A DNA stretch of 64,000 bases, taken from NCBI GenBank assembly GCA_903944135.1, contig CAJAQL010000016.1, positions 1,903-65,902 of the forward strand, in the 5' to 3' direction. The position numbers and the translations under genes are program-made. The notes under the pieces were generated by a model. It searched no databases, was not told where the DNA came from, and saw only the letters and a program-made list of their open reading frames with translations. Below are positions 1,539-48,019 of this stretch, piece after piece. Within the stretch, counting starts at the first letter, position 1. Each line of letters opens with the position of its first letter. Origin of the DNA: an uncultured Parcubacteria group bacterium (GTDB taxonomy: Bacteria; Patescibacteriota; Minisyncoccia; UBA6257; 2-01-FULL-56-20).

Positions 1539-3716
1539 TCATTCTTCGAATTTCATCGAAACGATCTTTGAGGTTCCGTCGTCGTCGAGCGTCACGCCAT
1601 AGAGCACATCAGCGGATTCCATCGTCGCGCGATTGTGGGTTACCACGATGAACTGCGTGTGCTTCGAAAATTCGCGGAGCATCTCGGAGAACCGGCGCGC
1701 ATTGCGTTCATCGAGCGGCGCATCGACCTCGTCAAGCACGAGGAACGGCGGCGGACTTACCGATATCATCGCGAAGACCGCGGCAATGCCGACCAGGCTC
1801 CGCTCGCCGCCCGAAAGAACGTCGAGCGATGTTATTTTTTTCCGCGGAAGCTTCACGTCGATCTCAATGCCGTTATTGTCTTCGGGGGCAATATCTTCCT
1901 CTGCCGCTTCTTCGGTCTCGGCCGGAACATCTTCCTCTTCATCGATTCTCGGCTTGTCAATTTTCGGTTTAAGGATCTTTAATTTCGCCGACCCGCCGCC
2001 GAACATCACCGTGAAGAACTTCTCGAACTCCTTGTTGATCTTTTCGAGCGAACCCTCGAACTCCGTCTTGATCTTTTCCGAAAGCTCCTGCATGAGCTTC
2101 GTGAGGTCGCGGACGGCCGCCTCGAGATCTTCGGATTCTTTTGCGAGGAATCCGTAGCGCGATTCAGTGTCTTTCGCCTCCTTCATAAGCGCCTCATCGA
2201 CTTCGCCGATCGACGCAAGATCGCCACGCAAGCGGAACATGCGCCGTTCCATCTCGGAGAGATCGCCACGCTGCGAAACACTTGCCGCATCCGTCGGTGC
2301 GAATTCTTCCGGCCGACGGCCTGATTGCTCTATCTGACGCGACATTTCCTCGCGTCGCAGGTCAAGGCGCTCGCGCTCAAGGACAAAGCTGCGATTCCGA
2401 TTTTCCCATTCCCCGATCCTGTTTTTGGCGATCTGCACCTCTCCGACTGCCGCCTTGAACATCTGATAGAAACCTTCCTGGCCCTTCTCAAAAAGCTGCT
2501 CCTTTTTCCGAAGCTCGGCGATCTCTGCGTCAAGCGCACGGAAATCTTTGGTGATTTTTTCGAATTCTTTCCGCAAGCCTTCCGGGATTTCCGCCGGAGC
2601 CTCCTCCTTTTCATCCAACGTAAGATCGATCTCCTCGAGCATTTTTTCGACGGTTGCGTGCAGTTCGCGGACATCTTCCTCGAGTGCGCGTTCAAGCTCG
2701 ATCCTCATTTTTCTCACAAGTTCCAGAAGTTTTTCCGCGGGATACCCCGCACGCGCTTTCGGCGTTGCCGCCATTTCCATCTGTGCCTCAAGCCGCCCAA
2801 GGTCCTTCTGCATTACGTTCCGTCGATCCATGAGCGCGCGAATATCTTCCTTGATCTTGCCCAGTTCCTTTTTTTCCTCCGGCTGGCTCGCTTCGATATC
2901 CGCCTGGCGCTTTTCCGCCGCACGCAGAGCCGCGTCAAGCGCCTCGCGTTGCTTTTTGTTCTCCGCGATCTTCTCTCCGATAAGGCTTTCACTGACGGCA
3001 ATATCCTTCAACTGCGAACCAAAAAAATCATTCTCCAGATTTCGTAGTTCCTCCGCAAGCTCGCCGCGGCGTTCCCAGCGCCCCGTCTGGCGTTTGAGAG
3101 ATCGCAGATGCGGCAAGATCTCCTCGATAAGCGCCTTGGTTTTATCGAGATTGATGCGGCTGTTCCTCAATCGCCGCTCGGCATCTGTTTTCTTCAATTG
3201 ATACTCACGAAGCCCCAACATTTCCTCGATCATCTCACGGCGCTCCATCGGGGTCGAACGGATAAAAAGATCGCTGTCGCCCTGTCCGATGATGATGAGC
3301 CCCTTGGATCCGAGCCGCGCTTTCGCGAAGAAATCGATGAGGTCGCGCAAAAGGATCTCCGATTTGTTCAGAAAATATTTACTTTCGCCGCCGCGCGAGA
3401 TCTGGCGGGTGACGACCACTTCCTCGAAATCGACCGGAAAGAACTTGTTCTTGTTCTCGAAATGCAGACTGGCGCTCGCCATACCGACGCGGGCACGTTT
3501 CTGGGTTCCTGCAAAAATAAGATCTTCAACTTTGCTGCCGCGCAGATTCTTAGCATCCCGCTCCCCCAAAAGCCAGCGGATGGAATCGACGACATTCGAT
3601 TTTCCGCTGCCATTCGGTCCGACGATCGCCACAATGCCCGCCGGAAATTCCAGGACCGTCTTATTGGCAAAGGATTTAAAACCGTTCAGTTCGAGTTTTT
3701 TTAAAAAATGAGACAT
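1539..3716 (-). CDS. smc: SMC-family chromosome segregation ATPase, unusually short (725 aa) with no recognisable hinge domain
   Basis: N-terminal Walker A FPAGIVAIVGPNGSGKSN and an SMC-type LGERDAKNLRGSKVEDLIF motif. C-terminal signature LSGGERSLVGIA and Walker B FLVLDEVDAPLD. The middle is all coiled-coil-like charged sequence. Confidence 0.8.
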   Translation of the reverse strand: MSHFLKKLELNGFKSFANKTVLEFPAGIVAIVGPNGSGKSNVVDSIRWLLGERDAKNLRGSKVEDLIFAGTQKRARVGMASASLHFENKNKFFPVDFEEVVVTRQISRGGESKYFLNKSEILLRDLIDFFAKARLGSKGLIIIGQGDSDLFIRSTPMERREMIEEMLGLREYQLKKTDAERRLRNSRINLDKTKALIEEILPHLRSLKRQTGRWERRGELAEELRNLENDFFGSQLKDIAVSESLIGEKIAENKKQREALDAALRAAEKRQADIEASQPEEKKELGKIKEDIRALMDRRNVMQKDLGRLEAQMEMAATPKARAGYPAEKLLELVRKMRIELERALEEDVRELHATVEKMLEEIDLTLDEKEEAPAEIPEGLRKEFEKITKDFRALDAEIAELRKKEQLFEKGQEGFYQMFKAAVGEVQIAKNRIGEWENRNRSFVLERERLDLRREEMSRQIEQSGRRPEEFAPTDAASVSQRGDLSEMERRMFRLRGDLASIGEVDEALMKEAKDTESRYGFLAKESEDLEAAVRDLTKLMQELSEKIKTEFEGSLEKINKEFEKFFTVMFGGGSAKLKILKPKIDKPRIDEEEDVPAETEEAAEEDIAPEDNNGIEIDVKLPRKKITSLDVLSGGERSLVGIAAVFAMISVSPPPFLVLDEVDAPLDERNARRFSEMLREFSKHTQFIVVTHNRATMESADVLYGVTLDDDGTSKIVSMKFEE

Positions 3717-3757
3717 TTTTCTTTCATTTCCGGAAAACAGGGATCCTTCTTGAGAAA

Positions 3758-4444
3758 TTACTTTCCATATTTCTGAAGCGCGCTTTTTGCAGCTTCGATC
3801 TCGGCATCCTGTTTTGAAAGCCCTTCCCCTTCTGCGATCAGCTTATCGCCAAAATAGACGCCCATCGTAAAACGGCGCTCATGAGCCGGACCTGATTCGT
3901 CCCGCACGGCATAGGTCGGCGTCACTTTTAATTTTTCCTGAATGATCTCCTGCAGTTCGCTTTTCGCATCCTTATAGCTCTTTGTTTTCAAGACCTCGTC
4001 AAGATGAACCAGTACGAATTTCTCAACGAACGCGCGCGTCGTTTCGAACCCCTGGTCAAGATAGATGGCGCCGATCACCGCTTCGATCGCGTTCGCCAAA
4101 ATGACCTCGCGCGCCCGGCCAGTATCCTTCCGCTCGCCGCGCGACATGAGGATGAAGTCCTGAAGATCGATATTCTCGGCGACCCGCGCAAGGATCTGAT
4201 AGTTCACGAGTGCCGCACGGAGAACCGTCAACTGGCCCTCCGGCTGTTTCGGAAATTTTCGGAAGAGGGCATCTGTCACGATAAGCTCAAGTACGGCATC
4301 GCCCAGATATTCAAGCCTCTCATTATGCGGCAAATGCCAATGCGGATATTCATTCAGGTAGGAACGATGGGTCAGAGCCTCGATGATCAGGTCCTTGTTC
4401 TTGAAAATGACGCCTATCTTCTTCCCGTATTCTTCAGGGTTCAT
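3758..4444 (-). CDS. rnc: Ribonuclease III
   Basis: RNase III signature [13 protein letters not shown] and a C-terminal dsRBD-like region. The ORF is 228 aa and its start overlaps the nusB stop by 4 nt. Confidence 0.9.
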
Positions 4445-4947
4445 GGTTTTTTCGCTTGCCCGCCATCAGGCGGCGTCTGTTGTTCGATTTTCTTTTTGGT
4501 ATTATGCCCTTCAGGATCCTCCATTTCGCGATAGATCGTCCCCAGAACTCCGTTCACGAACCGCGACGTGTTCGGCCCGCCATAATTTTTAGCCAGCTCT
4601 ATCGCCTCATTGATCGCAACGCGCGGCGGCACTTCATTATGGTCCGCAAACAGAAGTTCATACAGGCCGATACGCAGGATATTGCGGTCCATGACCGCGA
4701 TCTTATCAACCGGCCAGTCGGGGGCCGCCTTCGTGAGGATTTCGTCGATCTCCGTAAGATGTTCGATGACTCCCTTTAAAATGCGCCACGCAAAATCCGG
4801 TTCATCGATGCCCGGCGCAAATTCTTCAAGATTCCGTTCGAGAATGGCGGTGACGTCTTTCTCTTGCTTATAAAAATCCCACTCGTAGAGTGTCTGCAGA
4901 ATAACGGTCCTTATAAGATGCCTTGTTGCCATGATTGAAAAGAACAA
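4441..4947 (-). CDS. nusB: Transcription antitermination factor NusB
   Basis: NusB-like all-helical sequence ([17 protein letters not shown]...[16 protein letters not shown]), 168 aa. Confidence 0.8.
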
Positions 4948-4994
4948 TTATCAAACGTTCTCGGCCCCTAAAAAACAAGCACCCGCCTCGGCGC

Positions 4995-5147
4995 TTATTT
5001 CTTTCCGCACTGCGCACAAAGGCGATGTGCCATTCTCGGCGCGCCGCAGTTCTTGCAAACCATCAGCCGCTCTTTTTTCATCGCCAAATGAGACCGTCGC
5101 CGGCCCACTTTGCCATGGGTATGATGTTTTACTGGTACGCCTGCCAT
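4995..5147 (-). CDS. rpmF: 50S ribosomal protein L32
   Basis: Hand translation of the minus strand gives MAGVPVKHHTHGKVGRRRSHLAMKKERLMVCKNCGAPRMAHRLCAQCGKK. This is 50 aa, below the ORF-track cutoff, with the classic L32 C4 zinc ribbon. Confidence 0.85.
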   Translation of the reverse strand: MAGVPVKHHTHGKVGRRRSHLAMKKERLMVCKNCGAPRMAHRLCAQCGKK

Positions 5148-5202
5148 AGTGGTTATATGATATTCCATCATCCCAAAAACCGCAAGAGGGTGTCTGGTTT
5201 TA

Positions 5203-5299: not shown

Positions 5300-7230
<1,931 letters not shown>

Positions 7231-7789: not shown

Positions 7790-8707
7790 TCACCTCTTGA
7801 ACTGATCATAGATATTGAGCACCGCCTTGATAGCGTCGCCGGCAGAAATATTATTCTGTTTATAGAGAACGTCGCTTACGTCGCCGGCTGCCCAGATGCC
7901 CGGGCACGACGTCGCCTGCGTCTTTGCATCAACCTTCACGGCACCATACGCGTCACGATCCACAAGATCCTTCACGAAATCGGAATTCGGCAAAAGTCCG
8001 ATCTCCACAAAAACACCATCGAGCGGGAGTTCTTTTATCTCGCCGCTTTTGACGTTCTGGTACGTTATCCCGGTTACGAGATCCTTTCCTTCCACCCCCT
8101 GCACAACCGCATTCCAAACGATCTCAACTTTGGGTTCGTTCTTTATCTTTTCCTGCGTTATCGGGTCGCCTTTCAATATCTCCGAACGGATCATGAGGTA
8201 TATTTTCGAGGCATACGGCAAAAGATCGATCACGGACTCAAGTGCGGAATTGCCGCCGCCTACGACCGCGACCGTCTTTTCTCCGAAAAGCGGCGCATCA
8301 CAGATCGAACAATACACCACGCCCTTGCCTTCAAATGCCGCCTCGCCCGGAACGCCGAGCTTTTTGCGACTGCTCCCGGAAACAAGAAGGATATATTTGG
8401 TCTCATAGGTTTTGGCGTTCTTTGTGGCAAGCGAAAATGAACCGTCCTCTTTTTTTTGCACGGCCATAACCCTATCGTCGTCCACGATCTCAATTCCTTT
8501 CTGTGCACGGAGATGACCTTCAAGATTTTTCGCGAGATCAAAACCGGAAATTGACGGCGTACCGATCCAATTCTGGATCTCGGCCGAAACCACCGACTGG
8601 CCGCCAAGGCCATCAGTAATTAAAAGCGTGCTCATCTTTTTGCGCGCAGCGTAAATGCCGGCCGCAATACCGGCAGGACCTCCTCCAATGATGATCAGAT
8701 CGTACAT
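7790..8707 (-). CDS. trxB: Thioredoxin-disulfide reductase
   Basis: FAD motif DLIIIGGGPAG, NADPH motif VAVVGGGNSA and a redox-active CSICDA (CxxC) motif. 305 aa. Confidence 0.9.
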   Translation of the reverse strand: MYDLIIIGGGPAGIAAGIYAARKKMSTLLITDGLGGQSVVSAEIQNWIGTPSISGFDLAKNLEGHLRAQKGIEIVDDDRVMAVQKKEDGSFSLATKNAKTYETKYILLVSGSSRKKLGVPGEAAFEGKGVVYCSICDAPLFGEKTVAVVGGGNSALESVIDLLPYASKIYLMIRSEILKGDPITQEKIKNEPKVEIVWNAVVQGVEGKDLVTGITYQNVKSGEIKELPLDGVFVEIGLLPNSDFVKDLVDRDAYGAVKVDAKTQATSCPGIWAAGDVSDVLYKQNNISAGDAIKAVLNIYDQFKR

Positions 8708-9358: not shown

Positions 9359-10297
9359 TCATACAGATGCCGCCACCGCCTCCATTGCTTCTGTCGGCCC
9401 CTTCATGCGCGCAAGCACCGGCCCAAGCTTCTGTACGAAGTATTGGGCAACGCCGTACAACGCGTCAAGATCAACTTTTTTACTGACCGTTTTGTTGTCA
9501 TAGATGAAAAGATCATTGTTCACGATCTCGAGGCTTAATCCTCTGCATTTCTCCTCAAGCTCCGCCATGATATCGGGCGTGAATATCTCGAGCGCCTCGA
9601 CCTCGTATCCCTTTTTAATGCTCAAAGAAAAATATTTATTGAAATCCCCTTCAAGCTTGACGTGCTCAGAAAGCTGACCGAAAAGCTCGCCGCTAAAAAA
9701 AGATTCTTTCTTCTCCAGCAGGAGATCCGGCATGTCGACATCGAATTCCAGGCGAAACACCGTGTATGGATGCACTTGCCGCTGCTTCCCCTCGCCGGTC
9801 ACATATGAATAGAGGAAAAGCGAGATGGGACATCCGAAATATTCCCCGCTTACCGTATCGCGGACCGAGTGATCATGCCCTAAACGAAAAAGCGCACCAT
9901 CAAGCCCCACGGAGCTACCGGCGGGCGAGAAAATATAACCGTTCGCTTCAGCGAACTGACGCATGAATTCATCCTGAATACGCTGGCGCACAACCCCATA
10001 GGCGACGGCAAGCAACACCAAAGGAACCATGACAAGGATCGCGTCCGCACTATTATCGTTCCCTGCACTATTTAAAATGAAAACCGTAATGGCGCCGACC
10101 TCGAAGAGGACGATCACCGCGAGGCAAATGACGATCCTCCATAGATGCGCGCGGAGATACGTCACCATGCTCTGATCGACGCTCTGGATCTGTTCCTGAA
10201 CCGGCGCTGACACATCCGGCACGGCAACGGCAACATCCGATCCTTGCTCTGGGTCGTTATGAACCTCCACAACCTGATCCTCCATTGGCTCGTCCAT
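9359..10297 (-). CDS. Hypothetical membrane-anchored protein with an acidic N-terminus, one TM and a soluble domain
   Basis: The ORF-track entry 9359..10573 reads through the tRNA-Lys region. The plausible start is ATG at 10297 (MDEPMEDQ...); 10336 is an alternative. A TM helix (IVICLAVIVLF) is followed by a conserved-looking soluble domain. Confidence 0.5.
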   Translation of the reverse strand: MDEPMEDQVVEVHNDPEQGSDVAVAVPDVSAPVQEQIQSVDQSMVTYLRAHLWRIVICLAVIVLFEVGAITVFILNSAGNDNSADAILVMVPLVLLAVAYGVVRQRIQDEFMRQFAEANGYIFSPAGSSVGLDGALFRLGHDHSVRDTVSGEYFGCPISLFLYSYVTGEGKQRQVHPYTVFRLEFDVDMPDLLLEKKESFFSGELFGQLSEHVKLEGDFNKYFSLSIKKGYEVEALEIFTPDIMAELEEKCRGLSLEIVNNDLFIYDNKTVSKKVDLDALYGVAQYFVQKLGPVLARMKGPTEAMEAVAASV

Positions 10298-26713: not shown

Positions 26714-27312
26714 TGGATATTCTTTCCTCGCTTCTTTCGTGGCTTCTTCTCTATAAATATGCTGCGCTCTTCGCTATCGTTTACAGCGGAGCCCTTCTCC
26801 TGCCATTACCGGTGAACGCGATGCTTCTCGCCGTGGGAGCATTCTCGAGCCAGAACTATTTCAATTTCTGGCTGTCGCTCGCGATCGCCGTCATCGCAAA
26901 CACGCTAGGCGACCTCTCGGGCTACGCCATCACGCGCCGCTGGGGCACAACCGTAACGCACGCACTCCGCCTTAATAAGTTCGCTTTTTTCAAACAGCTC
27001 GCTGAAGAATTCCGGACCGACGCCGCCGTGACTGTCTTTACCACGCGATTCGCGAGCTCCCTCAGCACCATATCCAACTTCCTTGCGGGACTCGTCAAAG
27101 TGCCAATTGCAACATTTCTCTTTTATGATTTCATCGGAAATATCATAGAACCTGGCGCGGGCCTCTCGCTTGGCTATCTTGTCGGCAATTACTGGAATGA
27201 TTTTTCCGGAACGTTCGAGATCGCGAGCGGCATCATTGCCGTTGCCGTGATCATCTTCGTTCTCGCCCGCATCTCGCATAACATCGCAAAAAAATACAAA
27301 AACCCGGCATAG
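26713..27312 (+). CDS. DedA/TVP38 (SNARE-associated) family membrane protein
   Basis: 199 aa and polytopic, with the typical DedA core ...LLPLP...G...GDLSGYAI. Confidence 0.75.
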   Translation: MDILSSLLSWLLLYKYAALFAIVYSGALLLPLPVNAMLLAVGAFSSQNYFNFWLSLAIAVIANTLGDLSGYAITRRWGTTVTHALRLNKFAFFKQLAEEFRTDAAVTVFTTRFASSLSTISNFLAGLVKVPIATFLFYDFIGNIIEPGAGLSLGYLVGNYWNDFSGTFEIASGIIAVAVIIFVLARISHNIAKKYKNPA

Positions 27313-27315
27313 GTT

Positions 27316-27675
27316 CTACGCCAATTTCTCCCTTAATCTTTTTTCGACCTTCCCGACGTGGATTTTGAGCGTTGCCACGTCTGCGCGAGAATCAACGGTT
27401 TCCAATCGATCTTTGATCTCATGCAATTCTCCTGCCATAAGATCCATTTGAATTTCAATGGCATCTATACGCTGTTCCAAATTTCCTACCCGCAACTCTA
27501 AACTATCCATTCTCTGTTCTAGACCATCCATACGTTGCTCTAACTTGTCCATTCTCTTCTCCAATGTATCCATGCGCGCTTCCAACTTATCGAATCTTGC
27601 GTTGAATTCCTCTCTTATGGCGAGAAACTCTTTTTGCATCATCTCCGCCAATATCTCCAGGGTCATTTTTTGCAT
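27316..27675 (-). CDS. Coiled-coil protein with tandem ~11-residue repeats (RMDxLEQRMDxLE...)
   Basis: LEARMDTLEKRMDKLEQRMDGLEQRMDSLELRVGNLEQRIDAIE. The underlying DNA is imperfect tandem repeats and local GC is clearly lower than the flanks. Confidence 0.55.
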   Translation of the reverse strand: MQKMTLEILAEMMQKEFLAIREEFNARFDKLEARMDTLEKRMDKLEQRMDGLEQRMDSLELRVGNLEQRIDAIEIQMDLMAGELHEIKDRLETVDSRADVATLKIHVGKVEKRLREKLA

Positions 27676-32148: not shown

Positions 32149-32220
32149 CGAGGTTTTTGCGCTAAATTTAGAACCTAGAACCTATTCCTCGGATATCTAT
32201 TTCGGGATAGGTCTGTTTTT

Positions 32221-44605: not shown

Positions 44606-45952
44606 CTATAGTTCAACCTCCTCTCCCAGCGTCGGCACCTCGGATGCGATCGCGAGGTCATCGCGGATCTTTGCCGCGAGGACTTCGCTGGATGCCTGTT
44701 CGCCCTGCACGACGAAAACTTTCTTCAACGTTCCGCGCGATGTCCTGAGCCACGAAAGAAGATGCGGTTGATCGGCATGCGCCGAAAATCCCGCGATATT
44801 CACCTTCTTGCACCGCACCGGAATGGTCGTACCGAAGATCGAAACCTCCGGCGCGCCCTCGAGTATCCGTCTTCCAAGCGAATCCTCCGCCTGATAGCCA
44901 ACGAACAGGATCGTGCTCCGCGGATCGGGGAGATAACGGATCTCGTGATGGAGGATGCGGCCGCCGTTCGACATGCCGGCACCCGCCATAATGATCTTCG
45001 GCGGCTCGATATCGTTGATGCGTTTCGATTGTTCAGTCGTGAGCGTAAGCTGAAGCTCCGGAAAATTCAAAATATCATCGCCGCCGCGCTCAAGTATCTG
45101 AACGTCCTTATTGAAATAGCTTTCATACTTTTTGTAGACGGCAGTGAGCTTGATCGCCAGAGGACTATCGATGAAAACCGGCACTATAGGGATGCGGCCC
45201 TGCTCGAAAAGCTGATGGAGGAAAAAGAGAAGGTCCTGCGTGCGCTCCATGGCGAATGTCGGGATCATGAGCGTTCCGCCCGCCGCGACCGTATCCTCGA
45301 TTGCGCGCTCCAAGAGATCGCGGCGCTCCGCCACGTCTTCATGCACACGATCGCCATAGGTCGATTCGATCAGGCAATAATCGACCTCCGGCAATGCTTC
45401 CGTCGGCTTGATGATCGGCGCCGGCGAATTGCCGAGATCGCCGGAAAAAGCGATTGTCTTTCCTTCTGCCTTCACGATGATGAACGCCGACCCTAAGATA
45501 TGTCCCGCGTCATACAGTTCGACCGTGAACGGCCCTACGGTGACCGGCGTGTGATACCTGAGCTTCTGCCACTGCGCGAGAACCGCAGTGATATCGTCGT
45601 CATTATAAAGCGGCTCCTTTTTCTCACGCTCGGCCTCAGACAAAAGCAGATGTTCTGAATCATACAGCATAAGATCGGCAAAATCCTTGGTTGCCGGCGT
45701 CGCATAGATCGTTCCCTTGAAACCCGCCTTTACCAAGCTCGGTAAACGGCCGATATGGTCCAAGTGCGAATGCGTGATAAAGACCGCCGCAATGCTCTTG
45801 GGGTCGTAAGCGAAGGGTTCGAAGTTTTCCTTGTCCGCATAATGACCTCCTTGATGCAGGCCGCAATCGATCATAATGCGCACGTCGCCAGACTCAAGAA
45901 TATAGTTCGCGCCCGTCGCCTCGCCCGTACCGCCATGAAAAGTAAGTTTCAT
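44606..45952 (-). CDS. Metallo-beta-lactamase/beta-CASP family ribonuclease (bacterial CPSF-73-like, TTHA0252 type)
   Basis: MKLTFHGGTGEATGANYILE...IDCG..QG... and HxHxDH (FITHSHLDHIGRLP), with beta-CASP motifs downstream. ATG at 45952. Confidence 0.8.
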   Translation of the reverse strand: MKLTFHGGTGEATGANYILESGDVRIMIDCGLHQGGHYADKENFEPFAYDPKSIAAVFITHSHLDHIGRLPSLVKAGFKGTIYATPATKDFADLMLYDSEHLLLSEAEREKKEPLYNDDDITAVLAQWQKLRYHTPVTVGPFTVELYDAGHILGSAFIIVKAEGKTIAFSGDLGNSPAPIIKPTEALPEVDYCLIESTYGDRVHEDVAERRDLLERAIEDTVAAGGTLMIPTFAMERTQDLLFFLHQLFEQGRIPIVPVFIDSPLAIKLTAVYKKYESYFNKDVQILERGGDDILNFPELQLTLTTEQSKRINDIEPPKIIMAGAGMSNGGRILHHEIRYLPDPRSTILFVGYQAEDSLGRRILEGAPEVSIFGTTIPVRCKKVNIAGFSAHADQPHLLSWLRTSRGTLKKVFVVQGEQASSEVLAAKIRDDLAIASEVPTLGEEVEL

Positions 45953-46030
45953 AAATTTTTTTCTGCCGGTCCAGCCCATTAAAAGACTCGGAATAAACTT
46001 GGGCAGGAATCCATATTTTTATATTGTTAT

Positions 46031-46213
46031 TCTAGAACCTATCTCAAAACTATTCCAGCCCGCGTTGCGGAATATTTCCGCGGAGCGCAAGGCGCAACGA
46101 GGGAAGCGTAGCCGGGCTACACTGACCGAGGAGCAACGCAGCGATCCGCGGAAAGAGCCGAATCCTTCGGGATCAGCCGATCCCGCGAACGGAATAGTTT
46201 TGAGATAGGTTCT
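46031..46213. repeat. 183 bp element bounded by perfect 24 bp terminal inverted repeats (TAGAACCTATCTCAAAACTATTCC), with a GC-rich structured interior. Either a MITE-like element or a structured RNA
   Basis: Left TIR at 46031..46054 and right TIR at 46190..46213. The interior has several hairpins, including GATCC-TTCG-GGATC (a UUCG tetraloop). A degenerate relative (TAGAACCTAGAACCTATTCC...GGATAGGTCT) sits at 32165..32215. Confidence 0.5.
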
Positions 46214-46285
46214 ATTCCTCATTTGATTTTGTAGACAAATCACGATAACCTATAATCTGAGTAAATTGAGAAAGGGAGATATCGA

Positions 46286-46516
46286 ATGCCCACTCTGGTA
46301 CTTTCGGATATGTTCCCAACGCGGTGCATGTCGGCACAAAAACGCCGCCACAGCACGTCGCATGCGCCAAACCCAGTGCCACCGGCACTGCGAGTCACGG
46401 CTACCGCAACCCCCGTTAAGATGCAGGCGAAGCAACCGCCCGACAACTCGCAACCCGGCTGGCAGGATCGCAAGGTCGATCGACGACCGGTCAACGGCGG
46501 CGGCTACCGCTGCTAG
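46286..46516 (+). CDS. Candidate small protein (76 aa), GC-rich, with its own promoter, SD and terminator
   Basis: TTGTAG-16-TATAAT promoter at about 46225..46252, SD AAAGGGAG 8 nt before the ATG, and a GCCCGTTCC-N7-GGAACGGGC hairpin right after the stop. The product MPTLVLSDMFPTRCMS...NGGGYRC has no TM and 2 Cys. Confidence 0.35.
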   Translation: MPTLVLSDMFPTRCMSAQKRRHSTSHAPNPVPPALRVTATATPVKMQAKQPPDNSQPGWQDRKVDRRPVNGGGYRC

Positions 46517-46705
46517 CCAGCACGACAATGGCCCGTTCCTGATTCTAGGAACGGGCCATGAATTTTATCATCGGGGTCAAACCATAAATTTTTAAAACAG
46601 CGAAGTCCGGCTTCGATAAAAAATCGTTCCCATATCGGCGCACGGGATAAACTTTCAACGGAACGACGGATATCGCCTCACTCATATGAATGAGGCGATC
46701 AGAAA

Positions 46706-48019
46706 TCAATCTTTTATTTTTTCCTTCAGCGCATTCTCGAATTCCTGCCGCTCGTTCCACGGAATTCTTTTGCCGGCCGCAAGATGCATCCAATCCTCGC
46801 TTCCCTTGCCGGTACCGATCACCACGTCTCCGTCCTTCATCTCGGCGACGGCCTGCTGGATCGCTTCATGGCGATCCAGAATTTTTACAACGTCCGGTCG
46901 CGGATACGGCAATGTTGCAATGCCAGCCTCGATCTCATCGAGTATCTTCTCCGGATCCTCGTTATAGGGATCCTCGTTCGTTAGAAATATCTTATCGCAA
47001 TAATGTGCCGCGATCTTTCCCATCTCCGGACGCTTCCACGTGTCCCGACCCGTACGCCTGTCACCAGTAGCACCGACCGATCCCAGAATGCAGATGAGGC
47101 GCGGTTCGGCATAGTTCGGCGTCGGCCGTGGCTGTACGGCACGGTAGGCGGCTTCAAGCGAATCCGGCGTATGCGCATAATCAACGATTGCTGTGAGTCC
47201 CCTCGAACGGACGAACTCCATCCTTCCCGGTACACCCTCGAAATTCGTGATCGCATCGGCGATCATCCTGCCCGGAATGCCGATCTCGCGCGCCACGGCA
47301 ACAGCCAATGCGACATTCTCTTCATTAAAATCGCTCATCAGGAATTTCTTCGTCGGCTCGCCCTGCAAAGAACGCATCGGACTTAATTTCGGAAGGTATT
47401 GCCTGATCCATTCGTCGTCCTTGCCGTAGGTCAACGTCCGGTCGCCCGGCAATGCATCCCGGAAAAACTCGAAATATTTATCGTCGCGGTTCAAAAAAAC
47501 CATGCCGCCTTTCCTGAGAACATGACTCAGGAACGAAAGCTTCGCAGCGCGATAATTTTCGAACGAGCCATGCGATTCGATGTGTTCCGGCGCAAGATTC
47601 GTGATCGCGCCAATGTTCCAATTGATGAAACGGTGCCGATGCGCCACAACACCCTGCGACGTAACTTCGACCAAGGCATAATTGCATCCTGCCGCCACGG
47701 CGCGTGCCAGGAATTTCTGGATATAGCCGCGCCCCGGCATTGAATTGCCAAGCGTATTCTTTCCGCTCTCCTCGCCGACCTTCATGCGATACGACCCAAG
47801 AAGCGCCGTTTTTTTTCCCGCTGCTTCAAGAATGGCATTCACAAGCTCGATGGTCGTCGTCTTCCCCTTTGTCCCCGTGATGCCGATGACGAATATTTTT
47901 TCGCTCGGATGGCCGTGTAACTTTGCTCCGAACCATGACCATGAGAAATGGTACGCCGAGAACGCCCCAGGAAGATTATGGAAAAACTGAGCAAATTTTG
48001 AATCTTTTATGTTTGACAT
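46706..48019 (-). CDS. murE: Mur ligase family protein (MurE-like UDP-N-acetylmuramoyl-tripeptide synthetase), lacking the usual N-terminal domain
   Basis: GITGTKGKTTT P-loop, ...NLAPEHIESHGSFENYRAAK (the DHLD..HG region) and a C-terminal Mur ligase domain. At 437 aa it is shorter than a typical MurE. Confidence 0.7.
   Translation of the reverse strand: MSNIKDSKFAQFFHNLPGAFSAYHFSWSWFGAKLHGHPSEKIFVIGITGTKGKTTTIELVNAILEAAGKKTALLGSYRMKVGEESGKNTLGNSMPGRGYIQKFLARAVAAGCNYALVEVTSQGVVAHRHRFINWNIGAITNLAPEHIESHGSFENYRAAKLSFLSHVLRKGGMVFLNRDDKYFEFFRDALPGDRTLTYGKDDEWIRQYLPKLSPMRSLQGEPTKKFLMSDFNEENVALAVAVAREIGIPGRMIADAITNFEGVPGRMEFVRSRGLTAIVDYAHTPDSLEAAYRAVQPRPTPNYAEPRLICILGSVGATGDRRTGRDTWKRPEMGKIAAHYCDKIFLTNEDPYNEDPEKILDEIEAGIATLPYPRPDVVKILDRHEAIQQAVAEMKDGDVVIGTGKGSEDWMHLAAGKRIPWNERQEFENALKEKIKD

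Follow-up and report, generated by a model that had tools for sequence, protein, structure and literature searches.

The stretch of DNA analyzed here, 64,000 nucleotides in length and referred to below as the window, contains a perfect inverted repeat around a GC-rich core. It lies between the genes for a Mur ligase and an MBL/beta-CASP protein in the genome of a Minisyncoccia/Paceibacteria-type bacterium of the Candidate Phyla Radiation (CPR). The first-pass annotation proposed that it was either a non-autonomous MITE or a structured noncoding RNA. An isolated palindrome was a third option. Which of these is it? We favor the MITE, with a probability of roughly 85%. The element appears to be tied to insertion sequences (IS) of the IS5/IS427 group and to be an old, fixed copy with an internal deletion, located in a promoter region. 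It is noncoding and shorter than ~500 bp. It has inverted repeats, it shares its termini with an autonomous IS5-family element, and its TA target-site duplication (TSD) is evident by comparison with an unoccupied site. Copies were found in unrelated contexts. For annotation, an unexplained palindrome becomes a defined mobile-element relic. The kind is ordinary, yet it is rarely described in CPR bacteria. Only unrelated work came up in a full-text literature search on MITEs of the Candidate Phyla Radiation.

Anatomy of the element

The 24-nt arm TAGAACCTATCTCAAAACTATTCC is at positions 46033-46056. Its exact reverse complement is at 46191-46214, with 134 nt between the two. The inverted repeat spans 182 nt including both TAs. 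Pairing is 24/24 with the TA and 22/22 without it. Shuffling the window 100 times gave zero inverted-repeat matches at ≤3 mismatches. The perfect 24-bp repeat of the first-pass annotation is confirmed as real, with its coordinates corrected by 2 nt for the left arm and 1 nt for the right.

The entire MITE, GAACC...GGTTC, is 178 bp (46035-46212), as defined by 18 paired elements with differing flanks and by the empty sites. The left terminal inverted repeat is GAACCTATCTCAAAACTATTCC (46035-46056, plus strand). Its first 16 nt are the family core, and its first 20 nt match IRL, the transposase-proximal end of full-length IS copies, exactly. The right terminal inverted repeat (46191-46212, minus strand) is IRL-like and is the exact reverse complement of the left. 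The core (46057-46190) is GC rich, hairpin rich, and noncoding. It derives by deletion from the ~226-nt core that sister strains carry in a 270-bp element. The GC content of the core is 0.61-0.64, versus 0.34-0.46 in the flanks. The only ORFs that cross the element are 69 and 74 aa. Both are shifted out of frame by a ~92-nt indel in the sisters, so the core has no apparent coding capacity.

No transposase was found in the element or elsewhere in the 64-kb window, in agreement with the first-pass annotation. The element is therefore an IS derivative and not an IS. No second full copy was found within the window, and the copies seen there are one full copy and two 10-nt end-like relics. A single full copy would suit an isolated palindrome that arose by chance or by local duplication-inversion and has no relation to mobile DNA. 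Three results refute this explanation and leave it next to no probability. The arm 20-mer retrieved 29 loci in a scan of JGI metagenomes, including IS copies and MITE-like elements. Core homologs occur on nonsyntenic contigs. A relative has an empty site.

Termini and the link to IS5-family elements

In metagenome contigs, inverted pairs of the 16-nt end GAACCTATCTCAAAAC bound two kinds of elements. The first kind is short (140-186 bp) and contains no ORF. The second kind is 836-893 bp and encodes a transposase. The terminal 16-20 nt of the window element are identical to the ends of transposase-encoding elements on four contigs (L010, L014, L023, and L026). The transposases of the longer elements scored 221 and 220 bits with the NCBIfam model NF033580 (IS5 family), which has a cutoff of 110. 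Their Pfam domains are DUF4096 and DDE_Tnp_1. The transposase is encoded by a single ORF in L010 and L023 and by overlapping orfA and orfB in L014.

Members of the IS427 group, such as IS1248, ISPaes1, and ISPpa6, are 832-865 bp, have 13- to 21-bp inverted repeats and 2-bp direct repeats, and contain either a frameshifted pair of ORFs or a single ORF (PMC3281130). The longer elements match this group in overall length, in the length of their inverted repeats, in their 2-bp flanks, and in the arrangement of their ORFs. These 836- to 893-bp partners have TA flanks and one or two ORFs. Unlike an IS5/IS427 IS, the window element encodes no transposase and spans just 178 bp, with an unrelated core. 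It also differs in that both of its ends copy one IS end, the one beside the transposase start codon. We considered whether the core was made of pieces of the IS interior. This was rejected, as the core had no relation to the IS interior and the match was confined to the termini.

A cognate DDE transposase supplied in trans would bind both identical ends, and we infer that such an enzyme acted on this element. The mobilizer was probably an IS of this group. The full-length IS copies were found on short metagenome contigs, none of which was demonstrably CPR. No named IS carrying exactly these ends was found. The plasmid collection had no match to the window element, and a search of it with the full IS retrieved just distant Deinococcus IS5-family genes with 65-75% identity. 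Scanning with the 24-mer gave no match in viral contigs and one match in the GTDB species-representative genomes, a half copy in a CPR MAG (L002).

Two further arrangements were seen among the related elements. Contig L007 (845-1519) contains a 659-bp element followed by the start of a second element with one TA between them, which is a tandem insertion. A protein search with the 893-bp IS retrieved mostly contigs of ~1 kb. The one long contig among the matches, of 444 kb (L051), is archaeal by its neighboring genes for PCNA, primase, GINS, and Nop10. It carries a related two-ORF IS5-family element of ~1.6 kb (3584-5193) with distinct but similar ends, GAACTCATCTGGAAAC.

Target site and empty alleles

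The first-pass annotation suggested looking for TSDs beside the element, and TA is present on both sides. In the window, the occupied site reads ...aaatcaaatgaggaaTA[element]TAgaataacaatataaaaatatggattcc. A relative with a 91% identical MBL protein (L045) has an empty site that reads ...aaatcaaacggagaTAgaatgagaatataaaaat...atggattcc. It contains one TA and corresponds to the window flanks joined together. The site is also empty in four more relatives (L041/L042, which are the same, L043, L044, and L046). The single TA of the empty site, compared with the TA-element-TA of the window, identifies the TA as the TSD and 46035-46212 as the element. The left TSD copy is at 46033-46034, and the right copy, placed by flank comparison and by the empty sites, is at 46213-46214. 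Among the 18 metagenome elements, TA flanks the left end in 17 and the right end in 11, often as CTA|...|TAG. About 40% of family members have no clean TA on one side.

All five empty alleles contain TTGTYN-17-TARAAT before the MBL start codon. From its sequence, this is the putative MBL promoter. In the window, its former -35-like hexamer would be TTGTCT (46233-46238, minus strand), which is now split from the -10 by the element. The -10-like hexamer TAGAAT (46029-46034, minus strand) is re-formed from the duplicated TA plus GAAT. The positions of both hexamers come from the empty-site alignments, and their roles are presumed. As the element lies at the TA of the -10-like box, the presumed promoter was split and TAGAAT was regenerated on the gene-proximal side.

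The transposase would have inserted the element at this TA dinucleotide and duplicated the TA on each side. The insertion into the -10 box (TAGAAT) of the MBL/beta-CASP gene probably took place in a common ancestor of the window organism and its sisters. The element would then have stayed put as a fixed relic, and the window lineage would have lost a ~92-bp internal hairpin arm. At present, the element may only perturb or re-wire the two divergent promoters that it separates.

Age of the insertion

Nine sister loci with 98% identical MBL proteins are occupied by the element at the orthologous site, with its orientation unchanged. Their copies are 270-271 bp. The ~92-nt hairpin arm that is absent from the window is present in the sisters and in a distant copy (L031, 608-873), which makes the window form the deletion derivative. 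Between the window and the sisters, the core diverged by 11.2%, and each arm differs at 1 of 24 positions. Divergence is 13-20% in neighboring intergenic DNA and 1.4% in the promoter region of an adjacent small ORF.

The insertion is shared with the sisters, and it was followed by the loss of ~92 bp and by 11% divergence of the core, so it is old and not recent. The first-pass annotation read the 24/24 complementarity as a sign of recent mobility or strong selection. The first of these is wrong. Perfect arms do not imply recent movement, and this is a correction for annotation. Strong selection on the arms is possible as one explanation among several.

Dispersed copies and related families

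Homologs of the element occur on contigs with no further sequence in common with the window. L031 has two family members in 3.5 kb. One is the 266-bp copy at 608-873, which is 82% identical over 145 nt, and the other is a solo arm at 1951-1981. L002 and L012 have one arm and ~52 nt directly upstream of tpiA. Two other CPR loci carry additional copies bounded by these ends. L043 has a 160-bp copy at 6700-6859 with TA on both flanks. L049 has three family members in 16 kb. These are a 128-bp copy at 4608-4735, a 55-bp mini-hairpin at 7965-8019 that has little beyond the two arms and is flanked by CG on both sides, and a degenerate solo arm at ~9960-9988 upstream of tpiA. The ends are what is conserved in the family, with cores that vary in length and content.

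CPR genomes are ~0.5-1 Mb with little spare DNA. They still hold a MITE family tied to an IS427-type IS, and this family has size variants, solo arms, and copies close upstream of gene starts. The family ends (GAACCTATCTCAAAAC plus TA) can be used as a marker for strain typing and for assembly breaks in metagenome bins.

The solo arm and its junction, GGGCTGGAATAGTTTTGAGATAGGTTCTAAGATATTCTTATG, lie directly upstream of the tpiA start codon at L002 3030-3086 and L049 9945-10003. They have three differing positions (~93% conserved), and the TPI proteins are 81% identical. This conservation suggests that the relic may serve as a promoter or leader of tpiA. The possibility that L002/L012 came from the same genome as the sisters, which would have meant two copies in a single genome, was rejected. 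Its TPI matches at ≤81% on sister contigs, so it is from a different organism.

The first-pass annotation also listed a degraded relative at 32165-32215. A blastn search of this region at word size 7 and E ≤ 1 gave no match to the element. Only the 10-mer TAGAACCTAT (at 32176) and TCC are shared, so we could not confirm it as a copy. The region lies between two convergent ORFs and forms a weak hairpin with a T-run after it. The window contains four exact copies of the 10-mer, versus 0.05 expected, two of which are in the arms. The others are at 32176-32185 (plus strand) and 27309-27318 (minus strand), and both adjoin T-runs. They may be tiny end relics or chance matches. Given the excess over expectation, a tiny end relic at 32176 is kept as a possibility.

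Soil contigs with 57-63% GC carry a second MITE family bounded by the same 16-nt ends. This family has a conserved core with optional hairpin modules, and its alignment (A3) comprises L004, L005, L008, L009, L011, L017, L018, L019, L022, L025, and L027. Two-sided changes are present in 8 of its 49 predicted pairs. A further alignment hinted at core motifs common to this family and the window, GGAGCGCA and GAGCAnCGCA. A covariance model of the soil cores (R1) recovered other soil copies. At E ≤ 10, it did not detect the cores of the window, L031, L036, L043, or L049. A core common to both families was rejected on this result, and only the ends are therefore shared with the soil family.

Folding and the question of an RNA gene

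The 182-nt sequence folds at -94 and -98.8 kcal/mol on the two strands, with z scores of -10.6 and -9.6 relative to shuffles. The first-pass description of a GC-rich, structured core is borne out by the GC content and by folds far better than shuffles on both strands. The hairpin that it quoted, TGCGGAATATTTCCGCGG, is present exactly as written. The UUCG hairpin given as GATCC-TTCG-GGATC needed correction. The actual letters are GAATCC-TTCG-GGATC, which form a 4-bp ATCC/GGAT stem.

Such a stable fold on both strands could belong to a free-standing structured noncoding RNA gene of ~180 nt that is closed by the 24-bp helix, with only an incidental resemblance to IS ends. Hairpin arm B of the 266- to 270-bp versions also still pairs in L034/L036 and L031 despite sequence change. 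The first-pass annotation called for an Rfam search, which was run. At the gathering threshold, Rfam 15 found seven tRNAs in the whole window, all outside the element, and no family on the element. A permissive search of the element gave tp2 (RF02030) as the best match. This sRNA has a long AU-rich hairpin stem that aligns with the arms. The match scored 36.1 bits (E = 1.8e-4), below the gathering score of 50. Its alignment covers only the arms and handles the 133-nt core as an insertion. The subthreshold matches to tp2 and sR15 were dismissed as arm-only or chance. Permissive searches of the 270-bp sister form found nothing relevant and no tp2, and those of 14 related loci, including the soil family, found nothing relevant.

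An RNA gene would be expected to conserve its core in length and structure and to evolve slowly, and the homologs compared do not. The homologous elements are 55, 128, 160, 178, and 266-271 bp. Their cores range from 11 to ~230 nt and differ in content. The apical hairpin and the junction differ among the window, the sisters, and L031, and the core diverged at about the intergenic rate. Nor would an RNA gene be expected to share 16-20 terminal bases with elements that encode a transposase, to be bordered by a TA duplication, or to have an empty site in a relative. With variable cores, core divergence like that of intergenic DNA, and no Rfam family at threshold, the structured RNA offered as a candidate in the first-pass annotation is unsupported, and we regard it as very unlikely.

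Arm complementarity and possible domestication

The arms of the MITE changed in a mirrored way. The window has GAACC/GGTTC, which is the family consensus, and the sisters have GAGCC/GGCTC, an A-T to G-C difference on both sides. The L031 arms pair 22/22 despite three further mirrored differences. Mirrored changes between different copies can follow from one transposase that recognizes both ends. A mirrored change in a single fixed copy needs pairing selection, hairpin-templated repair, or conversion by a different copy. A mirrored double change is not what passive decay of a dead transposon predicts.

The MITE may have transposed in and been exapted, with its arm hairpin now under selection in one of three roles. 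It could be part of an outward-facing promoter, an RNase III-type hairpin within the MBL/beta-CASP mRNA 5' leader, or a spacer by which the two divergent promoters are uncoupled. Each arm changed at only 1 of 24 positions, and in mirror image, versus 11% in the core and 13-20% in other intergenic DNA. The estimated chance of a complementary second change at the partner position is ~1/47 × 1/3. The element splits TTGTYN-17-TARAAT, so the MBL gene would need a new promoter arrangement. Two candidate minus-strand promoters read outward from the arm. These are TTGAGA-18-TATAAA (46047 down to 46018) and TGGAAT-17-TAGAAT (46057 down to 46029). A consensus promoter scan, however, reported no site in the arms or adjoining them. 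The solo arm conserved upstream of tpiA in L002 and L049 also fits with exaptation.

The sample is small, with two fixed arm changes, and some sisters (L033, L034, L035, L039, and L040) have uncompensated arm changes. Hairpin-templated quasipalindrome repair or copy conversion would give the mirrored pattern in a functionless hairpin as well. In the window lineage, a third of the element is gone with no visible consequence. We consider exaptation unlikely, though clearly less so than an RNA gene, and a domesticated role in general is rated at that level or somewhat lower. The specific proposal that the arm hairpin is domesticated, with its 24-bp pairing actively kept (in part by a compensatory A-T to G-C change) against a drifting remainder, as a mobile promoter part or leader hairpin for the beta-CASP gene and likewise in solo arms (tpiA, CPR) is more doubtful still.

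Comparison with known MITE families

Correia elements of Neisseria and RUP of Streptococcus pneumoniae are MITEs of 100-200 bp with a TA duplication and inverted repeats of ~25 bp. They are intergenic and lie beside promoters. The whole element forms a long hairpin, and there are size variants with internal deletions. These families have tens to hundreds of copies per genome. By these general descriptions, the window element resembles them in size, inverted repeats, TA target, promoter-adjacent intergenic location, long hairpin, and deletion variants. It differs in having a single full copy in 64 kb, and no sequence relation was seen. We know of no parent IS for Correia elements, whereas the ends of the window family are shared with IS5-family elements.

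Tourist-type MITEs are eukaryotic elements mobilized by PIF/Harbinger transposases, which are DDE enzymes related to the IS5 family, and they have a 3-bp TWA duplication. Like them, the window element is non-autonomous, has only its termini in common with autonomous elements, and has a short TA-containing target. Unlike them, it is bacterial and has a TA duplication, and the sequences are unrelated.

Gene neighborhood

The element is within a gap of 727-753 bp, depending on the choice of MBL start codon, between the Mur ligase gene (46706-48019, minus strand) and the gene for the ribonuclease-like MBL/beta-CASP protein (44606-45952, minus strand). The MBL start codon lies 80 nt downstream of the element, and on the other side a small ORF (46286-46516, plus strand) starts 71 nt away. 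The window corresponds to contig k141_352436 of ENA assembly ERZ27229603, located by way of the Mur ligase, as the exact 44606-45952 protein had no database record. The named homologs of the flanking MBL protein are from Minisyncoccia/Paceibacterota, i.e., CPR bacteria.

The small ORF encodes 76 aa and looks real, with no gene called there in the public annotation of the contig. Between the window and the sisters, it has 10 synonymous codon changes and 1 nonsynonymous change. It has a GGGAG Shine-Dalgarno sequence, a promoter-like site TTGTAG-16-TATAAT at 46229-46256, and a terminator-like hairpin at 46528-46559 that is fully kept in the sisters. A 62-aa gene is called at this position on the matching strand in L036 and L038. 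L041 has a basic, Pro/Lys/Arg-rich small ORF in its place, and L044 has none. The hairpin at 46528-46559 and another terminator-like hairpin at 46601-46647 separate the convergent small ORF and Mur ligase gene.

The sister contigs also differ farther from the element. Beyond an Exo_endo_phos gene, L033 (13774-21347) encodes an SduA_C protein, a DNA methylase, and BpuSI/Eco57I-type restriction-modification genes. In the comparison with L032 and L034, the other sisters have genes for PilM/PilN, DHFR, and thymidylate synthase at this block, which marks it as a strain-variable defense island.
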